Source: Candidatus Eiseniibacteriota bacterium
GTDB lineage: Bacteria > ARS69
NCBI GenBank assembly: GCA_052390515.1
Contig: JBQTGV010000073.1
Location: forward strand, 1 to 21,413
Reading direction: 5' to 3'
Length of the DNA: 21,413 bases
Below, in pieces: positions 4,559-21,413 of the stretch; position 1 is the stretch's first letter, and each line of letters opens with the position of its first letter. Under the pieces are notes generated by a model that saw only the letters and a list, made by a program, of their open reading frames with translations, did not search any database and was not told the origin of the DNA. The translations under genes and the position numbers were made by a program.

Positions 4559-5647
4559 ATGCGCCACGCCTTCCTCGCAGGGACCGGTGCGTGTCTGCTC
4601 GCCGCCGTCCCGACCTTCGCCACTCCGTACGCCGGGGAGTTCCTGGCCAACGGGATCGGCGCGCGCGCCCCGGGCATGGGCGGCGCGTTCGTCGCGCTCG
4701 TCGACGACGCGACGGCCGCGTACTGGAACCCCGCCGCACTTCCGCGGAGCGAACGGCGCAATGTCGTCTACATGCACTCCGAGAATTTCGGGGACCTCGT
4801 CAACAACGACTCCGGGGCGCTGGTGCTGCGCTCCCGCGAGCTGGACGGGGGCGCCCGCAGCGCGTTCGGGGTGGGGCTCGTGATGGTCTCCGTGCCCGAC
4901 ATCCGCATCGACCCGGACGACCCTGTGTTACTGCAGGAGATCGAGAGCGGCAGCGACGGGGACTTCGACGTGCTCGACGCCGACGGGTCCCAGGGGAACG
5001 GGGACCTCGATCCCGGAGAGCGCATCGACCTCGACCTGCTGAGCCAATACTCCCACTTCGTCACCGACCGTCAGCTCGCCGTCTTCCTCTCCTACGGGAG
5101 GACGCGCGTCTTCCTGGAGCAGCTCTCCCTGGGAGCCAGCGCGAAGTTCGTGCACAAGTCGCTGGACGACTACTCCGCGTGGGGGATCGGCCTGGACGTC
5201 GGGGCGCTGTACACGCTCACGCCGGAGTGGACGCTGGGGGCGAACCTGCAGGACATCACCACCACGTTCCTGGACTGGAGCGGGACGCCGACCGGCGAAC
5301 GCGAGTACATCACGCCCAGCGCGAAGCTCGGGACGGCGTACATCCTGGACGTGCCGCAGCTCGCCGGATCGCTCGCCGGTGCGCTCGACCTCGACCTGCG
5401 CTTCGAGCGCGAGGCCGACGCCACGGTCGAGATCAGCGGAATGACCGGCGATCTGCGCGCCGGGATCGAGTACTGGTACCACGAGGCGTTCGCGCTGCGC
5501 GTCGGCACGGAGCGCCTGGGCAGCGACACCAAGCCGTTCACCGGCGGCGCGGGCATCCGCGTCCATCGGTTCTCGTTCGACTACGCTTACCGGAACCACT
5601 CCGACCTCGATGACGTGCACCGCATCTCCGGCGGAGTGCGCTTCTAG
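4559..5647 (+). CDS. PorV/PorQ (UPF0164, FadL-like) outer-membrane beta-barrel protein
   Basis: Signal peptide, then YAGEFLANGIGARAPGMGGAFVALVDDATAAYWNPAAL (family N-terminal motif), amphipathic beta strands, FDYAY...HRIS and a terminal Phe. ATG at 4559. Confidence 0.85.
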   Translation: MRHAFLAGTGACLLAAVPTFATPYAGEFLANGIGARAPGMGGAFVALVDDATAAYWNPAALPRSERRNVVYMHSENFGDLVNNDSGALVLRSRELDGGARSAFGVGLVMVSVPDIRIDPDDPVLLQEIESGSDGDFDVLDADGSQGNGDLDPGERIDLDLLSQYSHFVTDRQLAVFLSYGRTRVFLEQLSLGASAKFVHKSLDDYSAWGIGLDVGALYTLTPEWTLGANLQDITTTFLDWSGTPTGEREYITPSAKLGTAYILDVPQLAGSLAGALDLDLRFEREADATVEISGMTGDLRAGIEYWYHEAFALRVGTERLGSDTKPFTGGAGIRVHRFSFDYAYRNHSDLDDVHRISGGVRF

Positions 5648-5660
5648 GCTCACGGAGGGG

Positions 5661-7112
5661 GTGGCTCAGCTGACGCCGCCGATCGCGCCCCGCTCGAAGG
5701 AGATGCGGATCTTCCGCCCGACGGCCGCCCCCGCGACGGCGAGCGGCGGCCTGGCGCTCCCCGCGAGCGCCACCGACACGGCGGAGCTGCCCTCGTTCTG
5801 GATCGAGACCTACGGCTGCGAGATGAACACGTACGACTCCGAGTTCATAGCCTCGCGGTTCCTGGAGGAGGGCTGGGCCCCGGCGAGCGGCCCGGACCGC
5901 GCCGACGTCGTGCTGGTGAACACCTGCTCGGTGCGCCAGGGGGCGGAGGATCGGGCGCGGCAACGGGTGGCGAGCTTCGCCGGGCTCAAGCACGCGCGCC
6001 CGGACCTGCTGGTCGGCGTGGTCGGCTGCATGGCGCAGCGTCTGGGCGAAGGGCTGGAAGCGGGGCGGGGCGTCGTGGATCTCGTCGCCGGAACGGACAC
6101 CTACCGCGATCTGCCGGGTCTCGTGGCCGAGCGGAGGGCGCTCGGGCCCGGCCAGCGGATCGTGCGCACGCCCGCCGACGCGCGCAGCACCTATTCCATC
6201 GCGCGGCATCCGCGCGCGCAGGAGGGGCCGTGCGCCTTCCTCACCATCATGCAGGGCTGCGACAAGTTCTGCACGTTCTGCATCGTGCCGTTCACGCGCG
6301 GACGGGAGCGCTCCAAGCTGCTCGACGAGGTGCTGGCGGAGGCGCGACGCCTGGTGGACCGCGGCGTCCGGCAGATCACGCTGCTCGGCCAGAACGTGAA
6401 CTCCTGGCGGGACGGCGAGCACGGCTTCGCCCGGCTGCTGCGCGAGCTCGACCGGGTGGAGGGCCTCGCGCGCGTGTTCTTCACGTCGTCCTACCCGCGC
6501 GACATGACCACCGACGTGCTGGACGCGGTGGCGGAGTGCCGGACGGCCATCGAGTTCCTGCACTTCCCGGTGCAGAGCGGAAGCGACCGGGTGCTCTTGC
6601 GGATGAAGCGCAGGCACACGGTGGAGTGGTATCTTCGCCGGGTCGAGGAGGCCCGCGCGCGGATTCCGGGCCTGGAGCTCTCGACCGACCTGATCGTCGG
6701 GTTTCCGGGCGAGACCGAGGACGACTTCCGGGAGACGCTCCGCCTCGTCGAGCAGGTGCGCTATGCGGAGTGCTTCATGTACGCGTACTCCCCGCGCGAG
6801 GGTACGCCGGCGGCGCGGCTGGCCGATGAGCTCTCCGAGGAGGAGAAGTCGAGGAGGCTCGGCGAGCTGATCGCGCTGCAGCGGCGCATCGGACGCGAGG
6901 TGCTGGAAGGGAACCTGGGCCGCGTGAGCGAGGTGCTGGTCGAGTCGCCGAGCCGGCGCAACGAGCGCGAGGTGTTCGGGCGGACGCGCCGGCGGTTCAT
7001 GGTGGTGCTGCCCGAGGGGCTGGGGCGCCCGGGCGACCTCATCGACGTGCGGCTCGCCGAGCTCCACGGGACGACTTTCCGTGGAGCTGCCACGGGAACG
7101 GGGGGGAAATGA
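5661..7112 (+). CDS. miaB: tRNA (N6-isopentenyl-A37) C2-methylthiotransferase
   Basis: TYGCEMN, NTCSVR and GCMAQ (UPF0004 cysteines); radical SAM CDKFCTFC; LLGQNVNS, PVQSGS, DLIVGFPGET, YSPREGT; TRAM domain. Start GTG 5661 or ATG 5703 is uncertain. Confidence 0.95.
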   Translation: MAQLTPPIAPRSKEMRIFRPTAAPATASGGLALPASATDTAELPSFWIETYGCEMNTYDSEFIASRFLEEGWAPASGPDRADVVLVNTCSVRQGAEDRARQRVASFAGLKHARPDLLVGVVGCMAQRLGEGLEAGRGVVDLVAGTDTYRDLPGLVAERRALGPGQRIVRTPADARSTYSIARHPRAQEGPCAFLTIMQGCDKFCTFCIVPFTRGRERSKLLDEVLAEARRLVDRGVRQITLLGQNVNSWRDGEHGFARLLRELDRVEGLARVFFTSSYPRDMTTDVLDAVAECRTAIEFLHFPVQSGSDRVLLRMKRRHTVEWYLRRVEEARARIPGLELSTDLIVGFPGETEDDFRETLRLVEQVRYAECFMYAYSPREGTPAARLADELSEEEKSRRLGELIALQRRIGREVLEGNLGRVSEVLVESPSRRNEREVFGRTRRRFMVVLPEGLGRPGDLIDVRLAELHGTTFRGAATGTGGK

Positions 7113-7450
7113 GCGTACTGAAAGCGCTGCGGGCCTTTCTCGTCGCGGCCCTGGTGGTGTGTGCCTTCGCCTTCACGATGTACAACGCGAGCACTCGCGT
7201 GGAGTTCGTGCGGCTGCCGTTCCTGTCGGACCGCAACGGGGTGCTGCTCGTCGAGCTGATGCTCTACCCGCTGCTGCTCGGTCTGGCGGCGGGCTTCTCC
7301 TTCGCCCTGGTGATGCTCCTCGAGGCGCAGACCGCGCTTCGCTCGGAGCGTCGCACGCGCCAGAAGGTGCAGACCGAGCTGACCGCGCTGCGCAACCTGC
7401 CGATCGAGGACACGGACGACGAGCCAGGAAGGGCTGGGGCCGTTTCGTGA
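7109..7450 (+). CDS. LapA-family (lipopolysaccharide assembly protein A-like) membrane protein
   Basis: Two TM helices with F..YN...V..RLPF between them, followed by a coiled coil ending ELTALRNLPI. Lies directly upstream of a LapB-like gene. Confidence 0.75.
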   Translation: MSVLKALRAFLVAALVVCAFAFTMYNASTRVEFVRLPFLSDRNGVLLVELMLYPLLLGLAAGFSFALVMLLEAQTALRSERRTRQKVQTELTALRNLPIEDTDDEPGRAGAVS

Positions 7451-8538
7451 CCGGCGAGGGAGCTCTCGGCCTTCTCGTCGTTCTCGCCGCCGCGGCCGCG
7501 CTGGTGTGGTCGCTGGTCGGCGGCAAGCGGCGCAAGAAGACGAAGCGCCCCCCGTACATCGCCGCGCTCGGTGCGCTGGTGGACGGCGACGAGGAGACCG
7601 CGATCGCCGAGCTCAAGAACGCGGTACGCGAAGACTCTTCCAACGTCGACGCCTACCTGCGGCTCGGCGACCTGTTCCGGCGCCGCAACGACGCGGAGCG
7701 TGCGTACCAGCTGCACCGCGAGCTCGCCTCCCGGCCCGGGCTGGATCGCAGCGACATGGCCCGCGTCCAGCTGGCCCTGGCCCGCGACCACTTCGCCCTG
7801 GGCCGCCCGCAGCGCGCTATGGACGCGGCGCGGGAGTCGGTGAAGCTGGCCGAGGACCGGACCGACGCGCTGCAGGAGCTGCTCTCCATCCAGGAACGCA
7901 CCGGCGACACCGCCGGCGCCTTCCAGACGAAGAAGGAGCTGGCCAAGCGCGCCGAGCGCAAGGGCGATCCGTCGGAACTCGCCGCGTACCGCGCCCGGCA
8001 GGGCGAAGCGTTGGCCGAGGAGGGCAACCTCAAGGAGGCCGAGCGGGTGCTGCGCGAGGCGAGGCGGCTGGACTCCGGGCGGCGCGAAGTGAGGCGCGTC
8101 TGGGGCGGGCTGCGCGAGCGGCTCGGCGACTACGCCGGGGCCATCGCGGCGTGGGAGGAGCTGCTCGACGAGGAGAAGGACCCGGATGCGTCCCTCTTCG
8201 CCGACCTCGAGCGCGTGCGCTTCCTGGACGGCTCGTTCAGCGAGATGGAGGACACCTACAACCGCTTCCTGGACCGCGTGGCCGGACACGAGGCCGCCTC
8301 GTTCGGGCTGGCCCGCTTCCTCCAGCGCAAGGGTCAGGTCGACGCCGCGCTGGAGGCCTGCCGGCGCGGCCTGCGGGACAACGCCGACTCGCCGGCGCTG
8401 CGCACGCTGTGCCTCGCGCTGCTGCTGCGCGCCGGACGCTTCGGGGAGGCGGAGTCGATCGTGAACGAGTGGCTCACCGAGAACCTGCGCGAGGGACGCC
8501 CGGAGCCGCGACACGGCGCGCTGGAGCCGCAGCCGTGA
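7447..8538 (+). CDS. LapB/YciM-like TPR membrane protein lacking the rubredoxin domain
   Basis: N-terminal TM, YIAALGALV, and AYLRLGDLFRRRNDAERAYQLHRELASRPGL resembling the LapB LGxLFRxRGExxRAIxxH motif; multiple TPRs. GTGA overlap with the lapA-like stop. Confidence 0.75.
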   Translation: MTGEGALGLLVVLAAAAALVWSLVGGKRRKKTKRPPYIAALGALVDGDEETAIAELKNAVREDSSNVDAYLRLGDLFRRRNDAERAYQLHRELASRPGLDRSDMARVQLALARDHFALGRPQRAMDAARESVKLAEDRTDALQELLSIQERTGDTAGAFQTKKELAKRAERKGDPSELAAYRARQGEALAEEGNLKEAERVLREARRLDSGRREVRRVWGGLRERLGDYAGAIAAWEELLDEEKDPDASLFADLERVRFLDGSFSEMEDTYNRFLDRVAGHEAASFGLARFLQRKGQVDAALEACRRGLRDNADSPALRTLCLALLLRAGRFGEAESIVNEWLTENLREGRPEPRHGALEPQP

Positions 8539-9569
8539 GGCGCGTGGCGGAGCTCTCGGTCGTCGTCGCGCTCGTCTCGGTGGCGTCGCTCGCTGCGCCC
8601 GCGTCCGCCGCCCCGAGCGACGCGGAGAAAGCCTGGGAGCGCGGCGACCGCAAGGCCGCCGGTGAGCTCGTCCGCGAGTACGTGGAGCGCAACCCCGAGG
8701 CGGCGAGGTCCGCGCGGGTCGCGGCGTTGCTGGCGCGGACGGCGGCCGATCCCGAGGAGGCCGTCGCGCGCTGGGGCGAGGTGATCGAGCTCGAGCCGGA
8801 CGGCGCGCTCGCCGCCGAGGCACGCTTCGCCAAGGGCCTGCACGCCTACTCCGCCGGGCTGTACGTCGCCGCCGCGAAGGAGTTCGACGCGCTCGCCGAG
8901 TCCCACGGCAAGCACTTCGATGCCGGCCGGGCGCGGCTCTGGAAGGGTCTCGCCGAGCTGGGTGCCGACGATCCCGCCGCGGCGGCGGCCAGCTTCGATC
9001 GCGCCCGCCGGGAGGGCCGCGACGCCGAGACGCTCGCGGGCGCCGAGATCGGCGCGGCGCACGCGGCCTTCCGCAGCGGCGACGTGGCCGACGCCCTGCG
9101 CCGCTACGAGCGCTTCGAGCGCGAACACGGCTCCGACGGCCGGGCGAGCTCGGCCGCACGCCGCGCCGCGGAATGCCTGCGGCTGCTCGGTCGAACCTCC
9201 GAGGCGTCGGCGCTGGCCGCGCGCATCGAGCGCAAGTACCCCAACTCCATGGAGGCCACGCTGGCCCGTGCCGAGGTGCGCCGCATCGAGGCCCCGCGCG
9301 AGGAGCCGGCCCCCGAGGAGCATCGTCGCGGCCCCTTCGTCGTGCAGGTCGCCGCGCTGGCCGATCTCAAGAACGCCGTGGCGCTCCGCCGCGACATCCG
9401 CGAGCTCGGCATCGACGGCGTGCGCATCGAGATGGCCGAGGGCACCGGCGAGCCGCTGCATCGCGTGCTGCTCGGCCCCTACGAAACGGAAGAGGAAGCG
9501 CGCGCCATCGCCGACTCCGTCGCCGCGCTCGGGAACCTGAACCCGCGCGTGCGCGAGGGAACGGAGTGA
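8535..9569 (+). CDS. Exported TPR protein with C-terminal SPOR peptidoglycan-binding domain
   Basis: Signal peptide ending APASA, TPR-like helices, and C-terminal FVVQVAAL...NA...HRVLLGPYETEEEA (SPOR). GTGA overlap. Confidence 0.85.
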   Translation: MRRVAELSVVVALVSVASLAAPASAAPSDAEKAWERGDRKAAGELVREYVERNPEAARSARVAALLARTAADPEEAVARWGEVIELEPDGALAAEARFAKGLHAYSAGLYVAAAKEFDALAESHGKHFDAGRARLWKGLAELGADDPAAAAASFDRARREGRDAETLAGAEIGAAHAAFRSGDVADALRRYERFEREHGSDGRASSAARRAAECLRLLGRTSEASALAARIERKYPNSMEATLARAEVRRIEAPREEPAPEEHRRGPFVVQVAALADLKNAVALRRDIRELGIDGVRIEMAEGTGEPLHRVLLGPYETEEEARAIADSVAALGNLNPRVREGTE

Positions 9570-12256
9570 CCTCGGGAGCCCCACCGGCGAAAGCGGCCCG
9601 ACGACCCTCGCCCGTCGAGCCCGGCCTCACGCCGCTCATGCGCCAGTACCTCGGCGTCAAGGCCGAGCATCCCGGCTCGGTGCTGCTCTTCCGCATGGGC
9701 GATTTCTGGGAGACGTTCTGGGAGGACGCGGCCGTCGCCTCGAAGGTGCTGGAGATCACGCTGACGACGCGCGGCACGGAGAAGGACGAGCCCGTTCCCC
9801 TCGCCGGCGTTCCCCTCTCGCAGCTCGAACCGAGCGTGGCGAAGCTGGTCGCCGCGGGCTACAAGGTGGCCATCTGCGATCAGGTGGAGGATCCGAAGCT
9901 CGCCAAGGGTCTGGTGAAGCGCGAGGTCGTGGAGGTCGTGTCCGCGGGCACGGCGACGCTACCCGGCCTCCTCGACGCGCACGCCAACCGCTGGCTCGTC
10001 GCTGTCTTCCCCGATGCGGAGGCGGGGCGGGCCGGCATCGCCCGCTGCGAGGTGACGACCGGCGACTTTCTCGGCACGGAGATTCCGCTCGGCGCACTCG
10101 CCGACGAGCTCGACCGCATCCAGCCGGCGGAGATCCTCGTGCCGGAGGGCTTCGTCGAAGCGGCGCCGCTGGCCCGGCGGGGCGCACCCGTCGAGCGGCG
10201 CCAGGCTGCGGACTTCGCCGGCGCGGAGGACGCGCTCTCCCGGCTTCGCGAAGGACCGGGCCTCGGCGAAGGCCCGCACGCGGCCTGTCCGCTCGCGCTC
10301 GCCGCGGCGGCGGCTCTGCTGGCCTACTTGAAGGAGCTGCGCAAGGCGGAGCTCTCCGAGCTCGCCCCGTTCACGCTCGGCGACGGCTCCGACTGCCTCG
10401 TGCTCGATGAGATCACGCTGCGCAATCTCGAGATCCTGCGTCCGCTCCGCGAGGGCGCCCGAGCGCTCACGCTGCGCGCCGCGGTGGACGCAACGCGCAC
10501 ACCCATGGGCGGGCGGCTGCTCTCCGAGTGGCTGGCGAGGCCACTGCTCTCGCCCGCGCGGATCGCCGCGAGACACGACGCGGTGGAGGAGCTCGGCGCC
10601 GAGGGCGGCCCGGGCGCGGACGTCGCCCTCGTGCTGGAGCGCGTCGCCGACGTGGCGCGCATCGCCATGCGCATCGCCGCGGGCCGCGCCCATGCGCGGG
10701 ATCTCGTCGGCCTGGCCGCTTCGCTCTCGGAGCTGCCGCGCCTGCGCGAGACGCTGCTCGCGGCGCGCTGCGAGGAGCTGCGGAAGCTCGGCGGGGATCT
10801 CTCGGACTTCGCTCCCGAGGTCGAGGACATCGAGGAGACGCTCGTCCCCGAGCCGCCCCTCTCGGTCTCGGACGGCGGGCTGATCCGCGAAGGTTGCTCC
10901 GAGGAGCTGGATCGGGCGCGTGCCGCGGCCCGCCACGGGAAGGACTGGATCGCGGAGCTGCAGGCGATCGAGCGAAAGCGCACCGGCATCGCCAACCTCA
11001 TGGTCGGGTACAACCGCGTGTTCGGCTACTACCTGGAGGTGAGCAAGGCGAACCGGAGTGCGGTGCCCGGGGACTGGGAGCGGCGCCAGACCCTGGTCGG
11101 GGGGGAGCGCTACGTGACCGCGGAGCTCAAGGAGCGCGAGGCGGAGATCCTCGGAGCGGACGAGCGGGCCAAGGCGCTGGAGCTGGAGCTCTTCGTCGCG
11201 CTGCGGCTCCGGCTGGCGCCGAGCGTCGCACGGATCCGGCGGGCCGGCGCGGCGCTCGCGGCGCTCGACGTGCTCCGCGGCTTCGCCGAGGTCCAGGTGC
11301 GGTGCGGCTGGACGCGGCCCGTGGTGGACGACGGGGACCGCATCGAGATTGCCGCGGGGAGGCATCCGGTGGTGGAGGCTGCGCTTCCCGCGCACACCTT
11401 CGTGCCCAACGACACGCTGCTGGACTCGACCACGCGGCAGATCCTGCTCATCACCGGGCCGAACATGGCGGGGAAGTCCACGTACCTGCGACAGGTTGCG
11501 CTGCTGGTGATCCTGGCGCAGACCGGTTCGTTCGTGCCGGCGGAGTTCGCGCGCATCGGCGCGGTGGACCGCGTGTTCACGCGCGTGGGGGCCGCCGACT
11601 TCGTCGCGCTGGGCCACTCCACGTTCATGGTGGAGATGGTGGAGGTCTCACGGATCCTCGCCGCGGCGACGGCGCGGAGCCTCGTGCTGCTCGACGAGGT
11701 CGGGCGGGGAACGTCCACCTACGACGGGCTGGCCATCGCCTGGGCGGTGATGGAGCACCTGCACGACGCCCCGGGGCGATCGGCGCGCACGCTCTTCGCC
11801 ACGCATTACCACGAGCTGACGGAGCTGGCGGCGAAGCTGGCCCGCGCGGTCAACCTGCGCGTCACGGTGCACGAGCATAGGGACCGCGTCGTATTCCTGC
11901 GCAAGGTGGTGGAAGGCGCTGCGGACCGGAGCTTCGGCATCCAGGTGGCGCAACTCGCCGGGCTGCCTCTGGAAGTGACCCGCCGCGCGAGGAAGATCCT
12001 CGAGGGTCTGGAGGAGGGGACGTTCCTCTCCGAGCGGGGTCCCGCGCGCCGGGCGACCGGCGCTCAGCTCGAGCTGTTCTCGGGATCCGCCGCGTCGGTG
12101 CTGTCCGAGCTCGAAGCGCTGGACCCCGAGAGGATGACGCCGATGGAGGCGCTCGCCGTGCTGGCGGAGTGGAAGCGCAGGACGGCGGAGCCGGCGGCGG
12201 GCGGGGCGAGCGGAGCCGGCCAGGCCGGCGAGGCCGGCGAAGGAACGACGACGTGA
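9566..12256 (+). CDS. mutS: DNA mismatch repair protein MutS
   Basis: TPLMRQY, FRMGDFWE (F-x-E), ITGPNMAGKSTYLRQ, STFMVEM, LLDEVGRGTST, FATHYHEL, SFGIQVA, and C-terminal QLELF clamp-binding motif. GTG at 9566. Confidence 0.98.
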   Translation: MTSGAPPAKAARRPSPVEPGLTPLMRQYLGVKAEHPGSVLLFRMGDFWETFWEDAAVASKVLEITLTTRGTEKDEPVPLAGVPLSQLEPSVAKLVAAGYKVAICDQVEDPKLAKGLVKREVVEVVSAGTATLPGLLDAHANRWLVAVFPDAEAGRAGIARCEVTTGDFLGTEIPLGALADELDRIQPAEILVPEGFVEAAPLARRGAPVERRQAADFAGAEDALSRLREGPGLGEGPHAACPLALAAAAALLAYLKELRKAELSELAPFTLGDGSDCLVLDEITLRNLEILRPLREGARALTLRAAVDATRTPMGGRLLSEWLARPLLSPARIAARHDAVEELGAEGGPGADVALVLERVADVARIAMRIAAGRAHARDLVGLAASLSELPRLRETLLAARCEELRKLGGDLSDFAPEVEDIEETLVPEPPLSVSDGGLIREGCSEELDRARAAARHGKDWIAELQAIERKRTGIANLMVGYNRVFGYYLEVSKANRSAVPGDWERRQTLVGGERYVTAELKEREAEILGADERAKALELELFVALRLRLAPSVARIRRAGAALAALDVLRGFAEVQVRCGWTRPVVDDGDRIEIAAGRHPVVEAALPAHTFVPNDTLLDSTTRQILLITGPNMAGKSTYLRQVALLVILAQTGSFVPAEFARIGAVDRVFTRVGAADFVALGHSTFMVEMVEVSRILAAATARSLVLLDEVGRGTSTYDGLAIAWAVMEHLHDAPGRSARTLFATHYHELTELAAKLARAVNLRVTVHEHRDRVVFLRKVVEGAADRSFGIQVAQLAGLPLEVTRRARKILEGLEEGTFLSERGPARRATGAQLELFSGSAASVLSELEALDPERMTPMEALAVLAEWKRRTAEPAAGGASGAGQAGEAGEGTTT

Positions 12257-14007
12257 GTCCCATCCGCCGCCTTCCACCCGACGTGGCCAACCGCATCGCG
12301 GCGGGCGAAGTGGTGGAGCGGCCGGCTTCGCTCGCCAAGGAGCTGGTGGAGAACGCGCTCGACGCGGGCGCCACGCGCATCGAGGTCGAGATCGAGGCCG
12401 GCGGCACGGAGATGATCCGCGTCTCGGACGACGGCAGCGGGATCCCGTCGGACGAGGCGGAGCTGGCATTCGAGCGCCACGCGACGAGCAAGCTCACGGA
12501 CCCCGCCGATCTCGAGGCCATCTCGACGCTCGGGTTCCGCGGCGAAGCGCTCGCGTCCATCGCCGCGGTGTCGAAGGTGGAGCTCGTGACGCAGCCGGAG
12601 CGGGGCGGAGGCACTCGGCTGCGGGTCGAGGCCGGGACCGTCGTGCTGCACGAGCCGGCGGCGCGCGCGCGCGGCACGACCGTCGAGGTGCGCTCCCTCT
12701 TCCACAATACGCCGGCGCGGCGCAAGTTCTTGAAGACGCCGGCCACCGAGGGCCGCGTGCTGGTGCGCGCGCTCGGAGCGGCGGCCGTCGGCGCTCCGGG
12801 CACGGGCTTCCGTGTCGTGCGGGACGGCCGAGTGGTGCTGGAGGTGGCGCCCTCGCACGGGCTCCGGGAGCGCGCGTCGGCGCTCCTCGGCGGGGAGACG
12901 GTGGCGCGCATGGTGGAGGTGAAGGGGGGACGCGGCGGCGTGGAGGTGCGGGGGCTCGTGGCGGCGGCGGACTTCTCGCGGGCGCGGGACGGACAGATCC
13001 TGCTCGTGAACGGCCGTCCGGTGAGCGATCCGTCGATCGCCCACGCCGTGCGGGTCGGACTGGGCAACGCGGTGCCGCACGGCAAGCACCCGCTCTTCGT
13101 GCTGCTGCTGCGCCTGGACGCACGCGCCATCGACGTGAACGTGCATCCCACCAAGCGCGAGGTGCGCTTCCGGGAGAAGGACCTGGTGTTCGCCGCGGTG
13201 CGGGAGGCGGTGGCGTCGGTGCTGATCGACACGCGCTTCGACGCGCTGGGCCGCGAGGGACTGCTGCCGTGGAGGACGAGCGCGGCGCGCCGGCCGGATC
13301 CTCCGGCGCTCGTGGTGCGGGAGGGAGCACCGCGCGGGAGCGCTTCGCCCCGGGTGTCCGCTCCCCCGGCGGTGCAGGCGAGGGCTCCGGCGGCGGATTC
13401 GTCGGACTTCGCCGGCGCCGGCGCTCCGGCACGCCTCGCCACGCGACGCCTTCGCCTGGTCGGCGAGCTGTGGGGTGCTTATTTGATCGTCGAGGACGAG
13501 GACCGCCTGCTGGTGATCGACCAGCACGCCGCGCACGAGCGCGTGCTCTACGACGAGATCCGCGAGGCGGCGACGTCGGCGGCGAGGATGCCGGTGCAGG
13601 GGCTCCTGGTTCCGCTGAACGTGGAGCTCCAGCCGGGGTCGGATCCCGCGGAGACGTCGGCCGCCCTTCGCACGCTCGGCTTCGACGCCCGCGAGGGCGG
13701 GCCGTCCAGCGTGCTGGTCGACGGGATCCCCGGTCACCTCTCCCGCTGGGGCGGCGGCGAGTTCCTGCGAGAGCTCTTCGCCTCGGCGGAGGGTGCCGCG
13801 TCCTCGGCGGAAAAGCTGCGGGACACGGTGGCGAAGTCCTACTCGTGCAAGGGCGCGGTCAAGTTCAACCAGCGGCTCCATCCCGAGGAGATCGATCATC
13901 TGTTGCGCAGCCTCGAGCGCACCGACGTGCCCAGGCTCTGCCCGCACGGACGGCCCATCTATCTCGAGGTGCGCCGCGAGCAGATCGACGACCGCTTCGA
14001 GAGGTGA
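12253..14007 (+). CDS. mutL: DNA mismatch repair endonuclease MutL
   Basis: NRIAAGEVVERPAS, KELVENALDAGA, RHATSK, LGFRGEALASI, DVNVHPTKREV; endonuclease motifs DQHAAHER, SCKGA and CPHGRP. Confidence 0.98.
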   Translation: MSPIRRLPPDVANRIAAGEVVERPASLAKELVENALDAGATRIEVEIEAGGTEMIRVSDDGSGIPSDEAELAFERHATSKLTDPADLEAISTLGFRGEALASIAAVSKVELVTQPERGGGTRLRVEAGTVVLHEPAARARGTTVEVRSLFHNTPARRKFLKTPATEGRVLVRALGAAAVGAPGTGFRVVRDGRVVLEVAPSHGLRERASALLGGETVARMVEVKGGRGGVEVRGLVAAADFSRARDGQILLVNGRPVSDPSIAHAVRVGLGNAVPHGKHPLFVLLLRLDARAIDVNVHPTKREVRFREKDLVFAAVREAVASVLIDTRFDALGREGLLPWRTSAARRPDPPALVVREGAPRGSASPRVSAPPAVQARAPAADSSDFAGAGAPARLATRRLRLVGELWGAYLIVEDEDRLLVIDQHAAHERVLYDEIREAATSAARMPVQGLLVPLNVELQPGSDPAETSAALRTLGFDAREGGPSSVLVDGIPGHLSRWGGGEFLRELFASAEGAASSAEKLRDTVAKSYSCKGAVKFNQRLHPEEIDHLLRSLERTDVPRLCPHGRPIYLEVRREQIDDRFER

Positions 14008-14942
14008 AGCCGCCGCTCCTGCCGAGCCTGATCGGAGCCACCGCTTCGGCGAAGACGGCACTAGCCGTGGCGGCGGCGAAGCTCGTGCGTGCCGAGATCG
14101 TCTCCGCGGACTCCCGGCAGGTGTACCGCAGGCTCGAGGCCGGCACGGCGAAGCCCACGGCGGCGGAGCGCGCGGCGGTTCCGCATCATCTCATCGACGT
14201 CGCCGACCCCGAGGAGACGTTCACCGCGGCCCGCTTCGGGCGAGAGGCGCAGACTGCGGCGGCGGCCGTGCGCGCGCGCGGCCGGATCCCGCTGCTGGTC
14301 GGCGGGAGTGGGCTCTATCTGCGCGCCGCGGAGCGCGGGCTCTTCGAGGGGCCGGCGGCGGACGTGGAGCTTCGCGAGCGCCTTCGTCAGGAGGCCGAGA
14401 CGCACGGCGATGAGGCCCTGCACGCACGTCTCGCCGAGGCCGATCCGGAGACGGCGGCGCGCCTGCACGCGGCGGACCGGGTGCGCGTGATCCGCGCGCT
14501 CGAGGTGCTCGCGCTGACCGGAGAACCGCTCGCCGAGCACCATCGGCGGCACCGCGCGGCACCTTCGCCCTTCCGCTGCCTGCGCTTCGGGATCGAGTGG
14601 GAGAAGGAGGCGCTCGCGCGGCGAATCGAGTCCCGCGTCGACGCGATGCTCGGCGCGGGGTGGATCGAGGAGGTGGAGCGGCTGGTGCGCGAGGGTCTCG
14701 TCGAGGACGCGCCGGCGTGGAAGGCGCTCGGCTACCGCGAGGTGCGGGACGGGATCACCGTCAGCGCGGCGCGGGAGGACATCCGAAGGCGCATCGTCAC
14801 GGCGACGCGGCAGTTCGCGAAGCGCCAGCGCACCTGGTTCCGCGCCGTCGAGGGCGTGATCTGGTTCCGCGTGGCGAAGGAGGCCGATCTCGAGGGCATC
14901 GCCGCGACGATCGCCGAGAGGATCGGGGAGGAGGCCGGCTGA
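14004..14942 (+). CDS. miaA: tRNA dimethylallyltransferase
   Basis: EIVSADSRQVYR, GTAKP, PHHLIDV, VGGSGLY, RVIRALEV, ALGYRE and AKRQRTWFR motifs. Follows mutL with a GTGA overlap. Confidence 0.96.
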   Translation: MKPPLLPSLIGATASAKTALAVAAAKLVRAEIVSADSRQVYRRLEAGTAKPTAAERAAVPHHLIDVADPEETFTAARFGREAQTAAAAVRARGRIPLLVGGSGLYLRAAERGLFEGPAADVELRERLRQEAETHGDEALHARLAEADPETAARLHAADRVRVIRALEVLALTGEPLAEHHRRHRAAPSPFRCLRFGIEWEKEALARRIESRVDAMLGAGWIEEVERLVREGLVEDAPAWKALGYREVRDGITVSAAREDIRRRIVTATRQFAKRQRTWFRAVEGVIWFRVAKEADLEGIAATIAERIGEEAG

Positions 14943-15124: not shown

Positions 15125-15556
15125 GCTGTCCTCCCGGTTCGTCATCTCCCGTGTTGCCCTCTGCCGGCGTTCGCACCGCTCCTCGTCACGCCGCTGCGCC
15201 ACGCCTTCGCCTGAGCGAGATCAGGCGCACCGCGCCTGTCCCGTCGCGGAGCGGGTGCGGATGCGACGTCCGGCGAGCACAGGAAGGTCGGAAGGTATCA
15301 GCCGCTGGGATCGCGGCCGATCGAGTCGTGAGAAGACGCGCATCAGCCATCAAGCGCTGAGCGGTCCTGCCTCAAAGGGGACGGAGGCGCCGTGCTCGTC
15401 AGGCTCGGTGCCTCCGCCGTTCACCGGAGCTGCGGAACCATCCGCTCCGACAGCCGGTCGGCTTGCCAGCCGGCTCGAAGCGATGGAGAATACGCGCCGC
15501 CGCGAAACCGCGCGCCGCCGCCACTGGGATCGCCGTTGTCTCGTGCCGCCGCCATC

Positions 15557-16939
15557 ATGCGCCTGGGGATCGCCGGCCTGCTCGCGTTCTGCGGCTGCGA
15601 GTCGTCGCCCCCTTCCGCCCTCGATCGCCCGAACATCGTCCTGCTGATCGCCGACGACCAGGACTTCGCCCATCTCGGATTCCAGGGCTCACCGGCGGTG
15701 CGCACTCCCGAGCTCGACCGGATCGCGCGGCAGGGAGCCGTCTTTCCCGATGCGCACCTGCCCATGTCCCGCTGCCGGCCGACGCTCGCCAGCTTCCTCT
15801 CCGGCCGCTGGCCGCACGAGACGGGGACGTACTTCGCCTACGGCGAGGGCACGCTGGATCCGGCGGGCTCCCTCCCGAGCCTCCTCCGCGACGCCGGCTA
15901 CGCCACCTTCGTAGCCGGGAAGTACTGGGAGGGTGACCCGCGCGAGATGGGCTTCACCCATGGATCGGGCAAGACGCAGAACAGCTTCGTCCGCGAAGGT
16001 CAGGAGGAACTCTTCGACTTCCTGGACGAGACCGGCGGCCGCCGCCCGCTGTTCGTGTGGTGGGCGCCGAAGCTCCCGCACACGCCGCACGATCCGCCGC
16101 ACGAGCACTTCGCTCCGTTCGCGGACGATCACGTCGTGCCGCCGCCGTGGGTCGGCCCCGACCGCGCCGACCTCTTCCGCGAGAAGGAGCGCGTGCTCTG
16201 GGCCATGATGTCGTGGCTCGACGACGCCGTCGCCGATCTTCGACGCCGCCTCGAGACGCTCGGTCTCGCGCGCCGCACGATCTGGATCTACGTGATCGAC
16301 AACGGCTGGGCGAACGGGGTCCCCTCGAAAGGCACGCCGTACGAGGCGGGCGTGCGCACGCCCATCGTCGTGGCCGGCCAGGGCGTCGCGGGGGGGCTCT
16401 TCGCCGACCTCGTCAGCACGCTCGACGTCACGCCGACGATCCTGGACTACGCCGGCATCTCCGTTCCCGCGGCTGCCGCCGGGCGAAGCCTGCGCCCGCG
16501 GATCGAGGCCGGCGCGGCCGCTTCCGCAGGTGCCGCCGCTCCCGCAGGTGCCACCGCTCCCGCCGGCGACCGGGGGATCCTCTTCGGCGCCGACTACGCC
16601 GCCTTCGCCGGAGGTCCGCAGCCCGACCCCGCCCGCGACGTCATCGCTCTCTACGCGCGCGACGGACGCTGGAAGTACATCCGCTGGATGCAGGACATCG
16701 AGGAGGGCGCGAACCTCGACCGCCTGCGCATCGTCCACGAGGCGGCCGACTTCCCGACGCGCCGCGCCGGCGATGAGGAGCTGTTCGATCTGGATGCCGA
16801 TCCGGCGGAGCGGAGCAACCTCGCGGGCGCCACCGAGCACGCCGAACGGGTCGCGCGGATGCGGGCCGCCGCGCAGGAGTGGTGGGCGAAGGCGTGCGCG
16901 GGGGCTCAGCCGGCGCCGGCGAGCCAGGCGAGCGGCTGA
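15557..16939 (+). CDS. Sulfatase (formylglycine-dependent S1 type), probable lipoprotein
   Basis: MRLGIAGLLAFCGC lipobox-like N-terminus; RPNIVLLIADD, RTPELDRIA, CRPTLASFLSG, GYATFVAGK, PHTPH, DNG, KGTPYEAGVRTP, DVTPTILD and ELFDLDADPAERSNLA motifs. Confidence 0.9.
   Translation: MRLGIAGLLAFCGCESSPPSALDRPNIVLLIADDQDFAHLGFQGSPAVRTPELDRIARQGAVFPDAHLPMSRCRPTLASFLSGRWPHETGTYFAYGEGTLDPAGSLPSLLRDAGYATFVAGKYWEGDPREMGFTHGSGKTQNSFVREGQEELFDFLDETGGRRPLFVWWAPKLPHTPHDPPHEHFAPFADDHVVPPPWVGPDRADLFREKERVLWAMMSWLDDAVADLRRRLETLGLARRTIWIYVIDNGWANGVPSKGTPYEAGVRTPIVVAGQGVAGGLFADLVSTLDVTPTILDYAGISVPAAAAGRSLRPRIEAGAAASAGAAAPAGATAPAGDRGILFGADYAAFAGGPQPDPARDVIALYARDGRWKYIRWMQDIEEGANLDRLRIVHEAADFPTRRAGDEELFDLDADPAERSNLAGATEHAERVARMRAAAQEWWAKACAGAQPAPASQASG
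16508..16567 (+). repeat. In-frame 18-bp tandem repeat (about 3.3 copies) inside the sulfatase
   Basis: GCCGGCGCGGCCGCTTCC / GCAGGTGCCGCCGCTCCC / GCAGGTGCCACCGCTCCC / GCCGGC, encoding AGAAAS-AGAAAP-AGATAP-AG. Confidence 0.85.
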
Positions 16940-18267
16940 CCCGCCGGGAGCGGGCGCATCTCCAGCAGGAAGGCGATCAGCTCGTCGTTCTCGCCGGCGC
17001 GGTGCGGGTTGAAGAACTCCCACACGATCTCGTTCGCCGGTGTCACCTCGAAGGCACGTCCGGCTTCGGTCTCGGTGATCAGCGTGTTGCCGTTCGCCAG
17101 GCGGTGGTTCGTCCCGCAGCACTCCGAATAGAAGTCGTTGGACTCGTCGCCGGAATAGGCCCAGACGACCTGCTGCGTGAGCGGGTCGATCTCCAGCACG
17201 CGGGAGCGTCCGCCGGTCGAACCGCTGTTGTCGAAGAGCAGCAGGTTGCCGTTGGGCAGGAACGTCGGGTCGTGGTTGCGGTGCGAGAAGCCGGAGAGCG
17301 CCCAGACCAGTTTGTTCTGGGCCATGTCCACGACGCCGACCACGCTGATGCGGTTGAACGAGACGAGCGCATTCCCCGCGCCGAAGGCCGGCGAGCGCGC
17401 AGCCAGCGATCCGTCCAGGATCTCCAGCGTGTTGGTGTGCAGCAGGTCGCCGGCCTCGGGCGCGCTGCCGAGGAACGGCGCGTAGTGCGACGCGCGAACC
17501 GCCTCGAGCAGGGAGTGGCGCTGCAGCTCCTCGCCGTTCGCGTCCAGCAGGCTCACGAAGTCCTCGAGCACGGGCCGCGTCGCGTGCACCTCGGGGATGA
17601 CGTGGGCTTCGCGGGTCAGCACCCAGATCTCGCCGCCGGGCATCACCTGGAAATCGTGGTGCGCGCCGTTGCGGTGCGCCCAGAGGATGTTGGAGTCCTG
17701 GTCGAGCTTGAGCAGCGCCTTGCCCTCGAAGATCACCAGGAGGTCGCCGGTCTCGTAGAGGTGCACCTTGCGGAAGTAGTGGAACGACGGCTGGTCGGCG
17801 GGTGCGGGCACTCCGGGGAAAGCCTCCTCGAAGGAGCGCCTCCAGGCATGCCGAACGACGCCGGTGCGGTCCATGAGGATGGCCATCGGCGCATGCCCCG
17901 ACGTGTAGAGGAGCATCTCCGCGCCGGCCTTCTCGCGGTCGTAGACGGTGACGCCGGTCGTCTCCGGGGCCTCCTCGTCCGCGGACAGGTACCCGAGGGC
18001 GCGGAGGCGCTCCACCTCCTCCTGCTGCAGCGAGGCGAGCTGCTCGCCACCGGCCTGCTCGGCGCGCGCCCAGTGTCCCGGCTCGGCCGCATCCTCGCCG
18101 CGCCCGGGTGCGCGGTCGGCGAGACCGAGCTTCTCGGTGAGCGAGCTCATCAGGGCGAAAGGGGGAGACCGCTTCTCGTGGACGAGGAAGCCGGCGAAGA
18201 AGCTCGCCGGGAGCGCGGCCAGCAAGGCCGCGGCGAGCACGAGGCGGCCTCCGATGCCACGACTCAT
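16906..18267 (-). CDS. Arylsulfotransferase (ASST-family beta-propeller), membrane-anchored
   Basis: N-terminal TM; AHHDF, DLLHTNTL, RNHDPTFLPNGNLLLFDN, SRVLEIDP and RLANGNTLITETEAGRAFEVTPANEIVWEF are ASST-type motifs. GGAG upstream of the ATG. Confidence 0.88.
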   Translation of the reverse strand: MSRGIGGRLVLAAALLAALPASFFAGFLVHEKRSPPFALMSSLTEKLGLADRAPGRGEDAAEPGHWARAEQAGGEQLASLQQEEVERLRALGYLSADEEAPETTGVTVYDREKAGAEMLLYTSGHAPMAILMDRTGVVRHAWRRSFEEAFPGVPAPADQPSFHYFRKVHLYETGDLLVIFEGKALLKLDQDSNILWAHRNGAHHDFQVMPGGEIWVLTREAHVIPEVHATRPVLEDFVSLLDANGEELQRHSLLEAVRASHYAPFLGSAPEAGDLLHTNTLEILDGSLAARSPAFGAGNALVSFNRISVVGVVDMAQNKLVWALSGFSHRNHDPTFLPNGNLLLFDNSGSTGGRSRVLEIDPLTQQVVWAYSGDESNDFYSECCGTNHRLANGNTLITETEAGRAFEVTPANEIVWEFFNPHRAGENDELIAFLLEMRPLPAGQPLAWLAGAG

Positions 18268-18461: not shown

Positions 18462-21116
18462 ATGACGACGTTGCAGGGGAGCGCCGCGCTTCTCCTCGCC
18501 CGGGTGGGGGTGGTGCTGGCCGCGGGGGCGGCCGCGGCGAACGTGTTCCAGTTCGATCCGCTGGCGGTCCCGTCCCGGGAACAGCAGGTGCTGATCCTGG
18601 CCGGGCTCCTCCTCGGAGCCGGCGGGACGGCCTGGGCGATGCTCCGGGGGAGCCTCGGTCCGGGCCCCTTCGCGTCGGCCGCCGGCCGCTTCCTGCTCGT
18701 CGCCGTGCAGGTCGCGCTGCTCGTGCAGGTCATCCAGGCGTTCGAGATCGAGAGCCCGGTCTTCGCCGAGCGCGTGATCCCGCTGGCCGCACTCGGCTTC
18801 GTCGTGAACCACGTCCTGCCGGCGCGGCTTCGCCTGCCGTTCTTCGCCTGCCTCTCCCTGGTCGGGATCGGGCTCGTGTTCGGGGCGAAGCAGGCAACTT
18901 GGCTGATCGCCATCGGCGTCGGTCTGATCGGCCTGTGCGAGCTGCCGGTTCCGTTCGCCCTGCGGGTGCTGCTGGTCGTCGGCGCCGGCGCCTGCCTGGC
19001 GCTGCAGCGGGCCGGAAAGCTGCCTTCGCCGTGGTCCGGAGCCATCTGGCCGATCCTCGGCTCCATGTTCATGTTCCGGCTCGTCGTCTACCTCTACGAC
19101 CTTCGCCACCGCCGCGAGCCGTTCCATCCCTGGCGGGCCCTCTCGTACTTCTTCATGCTGCCGAACGTCGTCTTCCCGCTCTTCCCGGTGGTCGACTACG
19201 CCACGTTCCAGCGCACCTGGTACGACCGCAAGGACGCCTGCGAAATCTACCAACGCGGAATCCGCTGGATGCTGCTCGGCGTGACGCATCTCGTGATGTA
19301 CCGGGCGGTGTACCAGTACCTGACCATCTCCCCGACCGAGGTCGTCGATGCGTCGAAATTCGGCCACTACGTCACCGCGAACTTCCTGCTCTACTTCCGC
19401 GTGTCCGGCCAGTTCCACCTGATCTGCGGGATCCTGCACCTCTTCGGCTTCCACCTGCCGGAGACGCACCGCCTGTTCTTCTTCTCCTCGAGCTTCAACG
19501 ACTTCTGGCGGCGCATCAACATCTACTGGAAGGACTTCATGATGAAGGTCGTGTACTTCCCGACCTTCTTCCGGCTCCGCAAGTCCGGCGAGACGCCCGC
19601 GCTGATCGTGGCCACCGTGCTGGTCTTCTTCGTCACCTGGATCACGCACTCGTACCAGTGGTTCTGGATCCTCGGCGAATGGCTGATCTCGCTCACCGAC
19701 ATGATGTTCTGGGGGATCCTGGCGCTGGCCCTGATCGGCAACACGCTCTGGGAGATGCGCGCCGGACGGAAGCGTGCACTCGTTCCCAAGGCGCGCCCGC
19801 TCGCCGACATCGCGCTGTCCGCGCTCCGTACGGTTCTCTTCTTCGTCCTGATGAGCGTGCTCTGGTCGCTGTGGACCGCGCCCACGCTCGCCGGCTGGGG
19901 GGCGCTGGTGGGCGCGGCGGGAGCGGATCCGGCCGGCTGGCTCGTGCCGCTCGCGGTGCTGGCCGGGGCGGTGGTCGTGGTGGCGGCGGGCATGAAGCTC
20001 GGCGAGACCTGGCGCGGCAGCGGACCGTCCGCGCGGCTCCATCCCGCGTGGATCACGGTTCCCGCGCTGCTCGCGATGCTGTTGGTCACGAGCCCGCGTC
20101 TCGCCGCGCGGCTCCCGGTTCGCGGCCAGGAGTTCGTGCGGGACCTGCGCATCCCCGGTTTGAACCGCGAGGACCAGGAGCTGATGGAGCGCGGCTACTA
20201 CGAGAAGCTCACCAAGGTGAACCGCTTCAACAGCCAGCTCTGGGAGGTCTATGCAAAGAAGGGCGACAGCGCGCCGCCGCCGATCCGCCGTCCGACGGGG
20301 GATTTCCAGGGACTGGAGAACATCCCGCTGCTCGGCGTCACCTACAAGGGGCAGCCGCTGCGCACGAACCAGTGGGGGATGCGGGATCGGGACTACGATC
20401 TGGTGAAGCCGGAAGGCACCTACCGCATCGCACTCATGGGCGCGTCCTACGTGATGGGGTCGGGCGTCGGCGACGGGGAGACGTTCGAGTGGCTGCTCGA
20501 GGACCGGTTGAACCGCGAAGCGACGGCCGAGGGCAGGCCTGCGGTCGAGATCCTCAACTTCGCGGTGGGCACGCTCTCCTCCGCGCAGCAGCTCTACATG
20601 CTGCAGAAGCGCGTGCTGCCGTTCGATCCGGACGCGGTCGTGCTCGTCTCCCCGGCGACGGACGCGGACCTCTTCGCCCGGTACCTGTACCGCAGCCGCG
20701 ACGAGAACGTGGAGATTCCCTACGAGTACCTGCGCGGGATCATCGAGCGGGTGGGCATCGACTCGACGACGACGGAGGAGAGCGCGATGCAGCTGCTCTA
20801 CCCGGTGCGCACCGAGATCCTCGAGTGGGTCTACCGCGAGTTCGCCAGCGAGTGCACGAGCCGCGACGTCCTGCCGGTGTTCGTGTACCTCACGCTGCCG
20901 GGGCGCACGCCCGACGTCGAGCTGATCGAGGAGCAGATCCGTCTCGCGAAGGACTCGGGGTTCGTCACCTTCGACCTGCGCGACGTGTACGACGGCTTCG
21001 ACCCGAAGAAGCTGCAGGTGGCGTCCTGGGACTGGCACCCGAATCCGCGGGGGCACCGCATCATCGCCGAGCGCCTCCACCGCGACTTCACCGCCAGCGG
21101 GAACGTGCTGCCCTGA
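18462..21116 (+). CDS. MBOAT-family O-acyltransferase fused to a C-terminal SGNH/GDSL domain (884 aa)
   Basis: Polytopic N-terminal region with SFNDFWRRINIYWKDF and FFVTWITHSYQWFW (position of the MBOAT His). C-terminal soluble domain with TNQWGMRD, RIALMGASYVMG, ILNFAVG and DWHPNPRGH. GGAGGGGG upstream of ATG 18462. Confidence 0.85.
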   Translation: MTTLQGSAALLLARVGVVLAAGAAAANVFQFDPLAVPSREQQVLILAGLLLGAGGTAWAMLRGSLGPGPFASAAGRFLLVAVQVALLVQVIQAFEIESPVFAERVIPLAALGFVVNHVLPARLRLPFFACLSLVGIGLVFGAKQATWLIAIGVGLIGLCELPVPFALRVLLVVGAGACLALQRAGKLPSPWSGAIWPILGSMFMFRLVVYLYDLRHRREPFHPWRALSYFFMLPNVVFPLFPVVDYATFQRTWYDRKDACEIYQRGIRWMLLGVTHLVMYRAVYQYLTISPTEVVDASKFGHYVTANFLLYFRVSGQFHLICGILHLFGFHLPETHRLFFFSSSFNDFWRRINIYWKDFMMKVVYFPTFFRLRKSGETPALIVATVLVFFVTWITHSYQWFWILGEWLISLTDMMFWGILALALIGNTLWEMRAGRKRALVPKARPLADIALSALRTVLFFVLMSVLWSLWTAPTLAGWGALVGAAGADPAGWLVPLAVLAGAVVVVAAGMKLGETWRGSGPSARLHPAWITVPALLAMLLVTSPRLAARLPVRGQEFVRDLRIPGLNREDQELMERGYYEKLTKVNRFNSQLWEVYAKKGDSAPPPIRRPTGDFQGLENIPLLGVTYKGQPLRTNQWGMRDRDYDLVKPEGTYRIALMGASYVMGSGVGDGETFEWLLEDRLNREATAEGRPAVEILNFAVGTLSSAQQLYMLQKRVLPFDPDAVVLVSPATDADLFARYLYRSRDENVEIPYEYLRGIIERVGIDSTTTEESAMQLLYPVRTEILEWVYREFASECTSRDVLPVFVYLTLPGRTPDVELIEEQIRLAKDSGFVTFDLRDVYDGFDPKKLQVASWDWHPNPRGHRIIAERLHRDFTASGNVLP

Positions 21117-21122
21117 GCGCGT

Positions 21123-21413
21123 TCAGCCGCCGCGCGCGCGAACGAGCTCGCGGTTGGTGCGGTACCACGCGATCGTGCGTTCGAGCCCTTCCTCGAGGGA
21201 CGTGACCGGTCTCCAGCCGAGAATCCGCGCCGCCTTCTCGATCGAGAGGCGACGCTCGCGCGCCTCGCCCTCGCGGTGCGGCAGCGCGCCGAACTGGAGC
21301 TTCGCGCGGGAGCCCGTGAGCCGGAGCACGGTCTCCGCCACCTCGCGAAGGGGCACGCTCCGGCCGCTGCCGGCGTTCAGGATCTCGCCGCCGGCGGATT
21401 CGACGACGGCGGC
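21123..21413 (-). CDS. NAD-dependent epimerase/dehydratase (nucleotide-sugar), C-terminal part; start outside window
   Basis: Frame open to window end: GEILNAGSG...LREVAE...SIEKAARILGWRPVTSLEEGLERTIAWY, the typical extended-SDR C-terminus. Confidence 0.9.
   Translation of the reverse strand, partial: AAVVESAGGEILNAGSGRSVPLREVAETVLRLTGSRAKLQFGALPHREGEARERRLSIEKAARILGWRPVTSLEEGLERTIAWYRTNRELVRARGG

Follow-up and report, generated by a model that had tools for sequence, protein, structure and literature searches.

A gene of 884 codons near one end of contig JBQTGV010000073.1, from a Candidatus Eiseniibacteriota bacterium (assembly GCA_052390515.1), raises the question of what a single polypeptide that joins an MBOAT-like membrane domain to an SGNH domain could do. 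The window analysed here is this whole contig, 21,413 bp long with 65-77% GC, and the gene is hereafter called the target. In passages of a 2025 study (PMC12148441), envelope acylation is given only two designs, an MBOAT with a separate SGNH protein or an AT3 domain joined with an SGNH domain, and the contrast that the first-pass annotation had drawn between separate MBOAT systems and AT3 fusions agrees with these passages. A fusion of MBOAT and SGNH was not described in the literature searched, which comprised titles, openings of abstracts and passages. The target is best read as a relay of the Dlt/Pat type fused into one chain. The reading somewhat favoured here is that it works as a three-station acyl relay and is fed in trans by a carrier protein encoded on another contig (C159) of the same genome.

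On the plus strand the frame of the target extends from a GTG codon (18348) as far as its stop codon (21114-21116), and use of that GTG as the start would add 38 residues. As first reported, the 884-residue open reading frame runs uninterrupted over 18462-21116 (+), and the quoted motifs were found at residues 348-359 (FWRRINIYWKDF), at H396 in TWITHSYQWFW, at S662 in GASY and at D857-W-H859. Its GC content by codon position (0.67/0.45/0.93) resembles that of other genes in the window, and the 120 relatives listed in a protein search span 86-100% of it; on both grounds the frame is a real gene. The 920-codon frame antisense to it is open because of the high GC content of the window and is no gene. 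Since the fused frame recurs in four paralogues of this genome and in the 77 loci described below, a stop between the domains owed to sequencing error, which the annotation had named as a danger, can be dismissed. No sigma-70-like site was found near the gene in a promoter scan.

The membrane domain is a divergent MBOAT, since the AlphaFold2 model of the full-length protein matches DltB and other MBOATs. The model was built from a 35-sequence alignment and had a mean predicted local distance difference test score (pLDDT) of 81.3 and a predicted template modelling score of 0.76. In VIA-align, the best match was DltB (8jem_A; Z 25.2, 363 residues aligned, root mean square deviation (rmsd) 4.9, model residues 96-481), followed only by other MBOATs, i.e., PORCN (Z 22), LPCAT3 (21), MBOAT7 (20.8) and HHAT (20.3). 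The top membrane matches in Foldseek were likewise all MBOATs, with DltB, HHAT and PORCN the best, and the remaining fold matches of the membrane part, DGAT1 and ACAT1 included, also belonged to MBOATs. A canonical reference set was assembled from 13 Pfam-MBOAT genes of other genomes, 12 of which were aligned (L098, a 693-residue frame call, was left out). The profile of the family aligned to that of this set with a probability of 97.3% in hhalign (E 2.5e-11, 278 columns, query 187-486), ending at residue 486, and H396 was paired with the His that never varies in the canonical W-H-G motif. The MBOAT character claimed from the letters alone is thus upheld by both the DltB match and the hhalign probability.

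Conventional searches did not reach this assignment. The target protein had no match to Pfam MBOAT PF03062 at E<=1, and so lies below the gathering threshold; the NCBIfam DltB model scored 17.5 bits against a cut-off of 375; and no MBOAT was found in the PDB by sequence, whether the query was the protein itself, a profile of its full length or a profile confined to the MBOAT part. None of the 120 listed relatives has a precomputed Pfam MBOAT assignment. Only the fold search and the profile-profile comparison linked the target to MBOATs. No AT3 (Acyl_transf_3) family was matched in Pfam or NCBIfam, and no AT3 structure was among the fold matches.

Conservation was counted in the 35-sequence alignment and later in one of 78 sequences. 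The quoted motif residues (the 348-359 block, H396, S662, D857 and H859) were invariant in the former. In the latter, W349, R350, R351, Y355, W356 and K357 were present in 78/78 and N353 in 77/78, while H319 and H396 were, like GYYE, S662 and N699, kept in 78/78, including all 15 orphan or own-genome copies, orphans being fused genes without the linked donor genes described below. The annotation had regarded FWRRIN in place of FWRRWH as a divergent signature. The substitution is real and N353 occupies the His position of the canonical bacterial motif in hhalign, a second conserved position, some 40-50 residues before the invariant histidine, at which MBOATs carry either Asn or His according to passages of PMC9558356. 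The N-terminal extension before the MBOAT core is poorly conserved, with pLDDT of 45-69 up to about residue 70, and in most relatives the alignment does not begin before about residue 75.

That the C-terminal domain has the SGNH fold can be stated with confidence from its model, in agreement with the original assignment. Residues 600-878 modelled alone reached a pLDDT of 95.1, and in an unfiltered comparison with 48,161 chains the Z score was 21.1 for CgnD, 14-16 for many GDSL/SGNH esterases and 12.9 for PatB; DltD was not in the best 50 chains, an absence from a list that is no evidence of differing folds. Pfam PF00657 was barely passed (23.9 bits against a cut-off of 23.6) and PF13472 was not passed. 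The triad is spaced D-x-H, whereas a relative with D-x-x-H has one residue more (a one-residue gap against LAE5). When the SGNH blocks are placed by eye on what we take to be the TesA motifs, neither the Gly of block II nor the Asn of block III is conserved at its usual place in the 78 sequences: position 703 holds P45/G12/A10/S7, and the block III stretch is without a conserved Asn. N699 is invariant (78/78) and may substitute for the usual oxyanion-hole residue.

These results bear on the possibility that the SGNH domain is a hydrolase which removes or edits an acyl group, so that the protein would be no net transferase. Its best structural matches are indeed CgnD, esterases and carbohydrate esterases, with PatB, a proven transferase, ranking lower. 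However, fold rank cannot tell transferases from hydrolases, and the odd oxyanion positions recall the description of transferase-type SGNH domains in passages of PMC12148441. Moreover, the fixed fusion to an MBOAT and a Tyr motif, with split forms that mirror DltB with DltD, suits a relay. A hydrolase is therefore considered quite improbable.

Between the two domains lies a third module, two transmembrane (TM) helices and an invariant GYYE motif, which the two-domain description in the first-pass annotation had omitted. The boundaries of the modules are taken from natural split forms, which break at these places. In the split cassette that this genome holds on C159, the MBOAT is a protein of its own, which has 45% identity to target residues 75-479 and ends at the equivalent of about residue 486, and the SGNH protein, also separate, starts with a TM anchor directly followed by GYYE. 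Adjacent pieces in G064:C7 correspond to target residues 70-485 and 532-878, and a piece in G066:C411, which adjoins a carrier protein, corresponds to residues 518-876.

A precedent for such a module can be found in passages of PMC12148441, by which PatA acetylates the Tyr of a C-terminal FXYXXF hexapeptide, the acyl-Tyr supplies the Ser of the SGNH partner, the shuttle sits on two TM helices that are absent from DltB, and in the Dlt system the shuttle motif is carried by the microprotein DltX. In our control, all 13 canonical MBOAT frames from other genomes end in [FY]-[IVL]-Y-F-[QK]-F. The target does not show the published pattern and has an internal G-Y-Y-E-K-L instead. By analogy with the two extra helices of the published systems and with the canonical MBOATs ending in the hexapeptide, the hairpin and GYYE are probably the counterpart of the acyl-Tyr shuttle.

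As for topology, the family-averaged content of Lys and Arg peaks in the loops 435-446 (3.9) and 519-528 (1.8), from which the helices would run in-to-out (447-472), out-to-in (490-518) and in-to-out (529-548), and by this layout the SGNH domain is most likely extracytoplasmic. The alignment to HHAT, a protein with a cytosolic C-terminus, ends at model residues 515-520, which is consistent with the same layout. So are the N-terminus of the separate SGNH protein of C159, which resembles a signal anchor, and the two additional helices in passages of PMC12148441. The external position that the annotation had assumed for the SGNH domain is thus the most likely one.

The fused protein represents a widespread family. 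A word-indexed search scored 8,000 candidates and found 2,488 proteins at E<=0.001, and an exhaustive search of representatives at 50% identity found 10,324 at E<=0.001, 2,440 at E<=1e-10 and 1,019 at E<=1e-30. With one genome taken per species, at least 614 pattern matches gave at least 553 confirmed relatives, the best 80 of which led to 77 loci. The labels of these loci span Gemmatimonadota, Chloroflexota, Acidobacteriota, Pseudomonadota and Myxococcota, together with Verrucomicrobiota, Bacteroidota, Rhodothermota, Calditrichota and candidate phyla, and two cultured strains, Aromatoleum anaerobium LuFRes1 and Pseudothauera rhizosphaerae CC-YHH848, both with the cassette-linked form, are among them. 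Members of the family are frequent in bacteria of environmental and wastewater origin that belong to about a dozen phyla. No NCBIfam model covers it, and public annotations of relatives read "hypothetical", "SGNH/GDSL hydrolase family protein" or "DltB (MBOAT superfamily)". The suggestion that the fusion marks a distinct family is well founded, as it is conserved across the listed relatives, the 50%-identity representatives and the 77 loci.

The same suggestion had called the enzyme one-component, and this label is unsupported because further genes accompany most relatives. Partner genes were sought with tblastn using the C159 proteins, and linkage was counted within 10 kb of the fused gene. 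A carrier protein gene was found in 63/77 loci, mostly directly downstream, a ligase gene in 55/77 and a dehydrogenase gene in 55/77. Any of the three was present in 65/77 loci, and of the other 12 just four are flanked by 3 kb or more on each side. The target's own genome holds the split cassette of C159, in which a second SGNH gene (9857-10885) is divergently transcribed.

The cassette enzymes give some indication of the group transferred. The C159 dehydrogenase scored 430 bits against the NCBIfam model of PigA and 394 bits against that of RedW, an L-prolyl-PCP (peptidyl carrier protein) dehydrogenase, both under the cut-off, and 251 bits against the next; among structures, dehydrogenases of prolyl-ACP (acyl carrier protein) or prolyl-PCP scored 409 and 322 bits and others at most 290. 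The C159 ligase passes the model of the amino-acid adenylation domain, and its best stand-alone structural relative is a proline-carrier-protein ligase (327 bits), with DltA at about 198. Because both enzymes are nearest to those acting on prolyl or proline carrier proteins, the acyl group of the cassette is likely proline-derived. The best NCBIfam match of the carrier protein, below cut-off, was "ornithine lipid ACP for OlsHI"; this name led no further, the terms MBOAT, SGNH and acyl carrier protein being absent from the OlsH/OlsI paper.

One of the closest known systems is the Dlt system of Firmicutes (DltA ligase, DltC carrier, DltB MBOAT, DltX and the SGNH protein DltD). Besides the fold match of the target to DltB, the MBOAT core of the split form ends where DltB ends, genes for a carrier protein and for an adenylating ligase related to DltA adjoin most family members, split forms have a separate SGNH protein with an N-terminal TM anchor, and the proposed His to Tyr to Ser relay is as published (passages of PMC12148441). 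However, a single chain of the family unites MBOAT, shuttle and SGNH, GYYE takes the place of FXYXXF as candidate for the shuttle, the DltB model falls far below its cut-off on the target, the cassette adds a prolyl-carrier-protein-dehydrogenase-like enzyme and has a ligase nearer to proline ligase than to DltA, and no carrier and ligase cassette stands beside the target itself. With PatA/PatB, AlgI/AlgJ/AlgX and WssH/WssI, the target shares MBOAT homology, an SGNH partner domain and, as judged from passages of PMC12148441, two post-core TM helices that bring a tyrosine motif to the outer face. Canonical members of this group end in the hexapeptide and pass PF03062, whereas the target does neither; its SGNH domain is fused, it has Asn for the His of FWRRWH, and most of its relatives are carrier-linked. 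OatA and OafA/OafB resemble it as one chain of membrane acyltransferase, linker and extracytoplasmic SGNH domain, and a tyrosine intermediate has been reported for OatA (passages of PMC12148441), but the target has an MBOAT fold and no AT3 match, and passages of sources including PMC9558356 see no relationship between the two folds. CgnD of crocagin biosynthesis (PDB 8a2n), the best match of the C-terminal domain including its beta extension (241 residues, rmsd 3.3), is, as far as the passages on it go, a soluble hydrolase that releases the peptide core; its sequence identity is 17% and no functional link is implied.

On the observed folds, homology, invariant residues and module boundaries the following relay can be proposed. 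At the first station, the DltB-like MBOAT core would take the acyl group from a cytoplasmic thioester donor through H396, and the hairpin would return the chain to the outer face. At the second, a tyrosine of GYYE on the flexible linker would pick up the acyl group where the MBOAT opens to the outside and carry it across. At the third, the SGNH domain with S662, D857 and H859 would hand it to a hydroxyl of an envelope molecule. The donor would be the C159 carrier protein, which is encoded once in this genome and would be loaded by the amino-acid-adenylating ligase and probably modified by the prolyl-carrier-protein-dehydrogenase-like enzyme. The target and three fused paralogues would share this donor and differ in the acceptor.

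Dependence of the target, itself an orphan, on a carrier protein as donor is given a chance slightly better than even, on the distribution of genes among genomes and on the conservation of residues. The genome, whose assembly is 95% complete, has four fused orphan copies with the target included, at a level of 41-48% identity among paralogues, and one strong carrier gene (C159) besides one weak match (C62, 42 bits). In a FastTree phylogeny of 78 sequences, from which 3/77 loci with fewer than 700 residues were left out, the four paralogues were not mutual nearest kin, and orphans were scattered among cassette-linked members with at least eight changes of state. The sister of the target (L013, support 98) has a carrier gene directly downstream of its fused gene and no ligase or dehydrogenase gene within 10 kb, and is thus a precedent for supply in trans. 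Strong carrier matches (65-93 bits) were found in 9/10 other orphan-bearing genomes, and among the 12 genomes of its own family a strong carrier occurred in exactly the four with fused genes, the rest having matches of at most 48 bits or none.

Alternatively, the target could be a self-contained O-acyltransferase, using acyl-CoA as its direct source of an acetyl or other acyl group, in the manner of PatA and AlgI and with no carrier. The contig has no cassette gene, and two extra TM helices are ascribed in passages of PMC12148441 to MBOATs of the acyl-CoA type and not to DltB. However, the helices and GYYE are family-wide and occur in cassette-linked members too, and are therefore no marker of the acyl-CoA type. 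The 95%-complete genome was found to have no canonical Pfam MBOAT, which is present in 8/11 genomes of its family, so the paralogues might have replaced it, and in G068 (the genome of locus L045) two fused copies are accompanied by weak ACP-like matches only. Against this, a carrier is encoded in nearly all other orphan-bearing genomes and in this one, and the orphans, scattered over the tree, have no relaxed surface: of 154 columns conserved to at least 90% in the 63 cassette-linked members, 141 are such that 80% or more of the 15 orphan or own-genome copies retain the residue. The target keeps 148 of them; E160 and L272 are unique to it, which would again suit independence from a carrier. 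Taken together, a self-contained enzyme is regarded as unlikely, although well short of negligible.

The six departures from the 154 conserved positions, and the presence of four fused paralogues in one genome, could also be expected from a redundant and decaying copy without function. The frame is, however, intact with a third-position GC of 0.93 like that of its neighbours, all candidate catalytic residues are kept, and relatives with 79-93% identity to the target are intact as well. Decay is hence very improbable.

Several observations weigh against the carrier-fed relay and temper the preference for it. The short triad spacing and the unconserved block II and III positions of the SGNH domain were described above. 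GYYE is internal and departs from the FXYXXF pattern, and with pLDDT below 50 this part of the model is too uncertain for contacts with H396 or S662 to be judged. Neither a carrier nor a ligase nor a dehydrogenase gene was found on the contig of the target. The matches in G068 reach only 34-37 bits, and only the target has E160 and L272, where its clade otherwise has His (Arg in one) and Arg. Co-occurrence among related, incomplete genomes is also weak evidence. As an observation in its own right, the two fused members of G068 stand head to head (G068:C34 36-5467) in the sole orphan-bearing genome without a strong carrier match.

The genomic context offers some guidance on the acceptor. Upstream of the target lies a sulfatase-family gene whose product is soluble by hydropathy scan and has C-R-P-T-L where C-x-P-x-R is expected; the features of the window are listed in the table below. 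The contexts of the four paralogues in this genome are mutually different. Around the copy on C64 (L009) lie genes for an S41 peptidase, for a TPR protein and for two proteins of the sulfatase family. The copy on C1 is directly preceded, on its own strand, by a PMT_2 (GT-C) gene and is also accompanied by one that is STT3-like, and that on C212 (L011, 5491-11257) is flanked by the topoisomerase VI genes for subunits B and A, which share its strand. The arylsulfotransferase-like (ASST-like) and PMT_2 neighbours of this genome's copies were found beside 0/77 relatives.

Within the 17-member clade of the target, 8 of the 16 others lie among one to five proteins of 600-900 residues with a sulfatase-family domain and four to seven N-terminal TM helices, in which W-T-L-P-S-H-A-S replaces the C-x-P-x-R formylglycine motif, with Thr for Cys/Ser and His for Arg. 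Such neighbours were found outside the clade in only 1/61 loci, and weakly; GT2, GT9 and PMT_2 genes accompany those of the clade. Their possible identity as LtaS/EptA-like proteins was rejected, the closest solved relatives being S1 sulfatases and phosphonate monoester hydrolases. Arrays of sulfatase-domain proteins of 600-1,000 residues, at most five per locus, were seen in L013 (3780-18307), L042, L030 and L009 (11828-16432), with four to seven N-terminal TM helices in the first three and none detected in the two proteins of C64 (L009). By its gene content the clade context points to envelope glycoconjugate loci, and no further, and the acceptor is likely an envelope glycoconjugate. A tentative and rather doubtful extension is that the genome works as a hub with spokes, where one cytoplasmic donor module of ligase, carrier and dehydrogenase would feed scattered fused transferases, each at a different locus for building the envelope, that place the same proline-derived (dehydroprolyl or pyrrolyl) ester on different acceptors, and where the sulfatase-family proteins of the clade without the formylglycine motif may act on the same glycoconjugate.

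Downstream of the target only 297 bp of contig are left, and the dehydratase/epimerase gene there is cut by the contig end. Contig C48, which begins with the N-terminal part of an epimerase (G000:C48 1-718), was considered as the continuation but could not be joined, as the two contigs do not overlap in DNA and the genes differ in residues over the stretch in common, which makes them paralogues or variants. Since this epimerase is similar but not identical, the assembly probably broke at paralogous epimerase genes.

Table. Features of the target gene, of the window and of the split cassette on contig C159 (positions are those of the window unless another contig is named)
Feature	Position	Strand	Basis or remark
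Target gene	18462..21116	+	ATG at 18462, 884 aa plus stop; close relatives of 883 aa span 99-100%
Residues 1-95, N-terminal extension	18462..18746	+	Predicted helices 7-29, 39-64 and 67-94
Residues 96-486, MBOAT-fold core, equivalent to whole DltB	18747..19919	+	Fold and profile alignment
E160 / L272 codons	18939-18941 / 19275-19277	+	His/Arg conserved in cassette-linked members
Residues 348-359, FWRRINIYWKDF, with N353	19503..19538	+	Alignment to canonical MBOATs
H396 codon, candidate catalytic histidine	19647..19649	+	Aligns with His of canonical W-H-G; invariant 78/78
Residues 490-548, two hydrophobic helices (490-518, 529-548), hairpin	19929..20105	+	Model; K/R-rich loop 519-528
Residues 549-610, flexible linker	20106..20291	+	pLDDT <50 at 573-603
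Residues 578-581, G-Y-Y-E, candidate tyrosine acyl-shuttle motif	20193..20204	+	Invariant 78/78
Residues 600-884, SGNH domain with N-terminal beta extension	20259..21113	+	Domain model, fold matches, Pfam PF00657
S662 codon (G-A-S), candidate nucleophile	20445..20447	+	78/78
D857-W858-H859, candidate acid and base of triad	21030..21038	+	77/78, one gap
Antisense open reading frame, 920 aa	18318..21080	-	Overlaps target gene
Sulfatase-family gene, upstream	15392..16939	+	Pfam PF00884 5.6e-29; arylsulfatase-like by NCBIfam, below cut-off
ASST-like protein, hydrophobic N-terminus	16906..18267	-	Pfam PF14269 6.8e-21; divergent, 194 bp from target
Sugar-nucleotide dehydratase/epimerase, 3' end, convergent	21123..21413	-	NCBIfam TIGR01181 1.7e-10, far below cut-off
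Housekeeping genes	3519-14942		pfkB kinase, MiaB-like radical SAM enzyme, TPR, SPOR, MutS, MutL, MiaA
Split cassette (G000:C159, locus L012)	4310-10885		On one strand: dehydrogenase, MBOAT, 87-aa carrier, ligase, SGNH

Based on the results of this study, MBOAT, shuttle and SGNH domain in one chain form a third design beside the two published ones, and three stations on a single polypeptide would be convenient for structural study of the acyl-Tyr shuttle between active sites. The link to a carrier of the proline type predicts an envelope modification that is absent from the literature searched, in the titles, abstract openings and passages covered. Moreover, a genome that combines a split cassette with four fused orphans is a natural test of whether one donor can serve several transferases.

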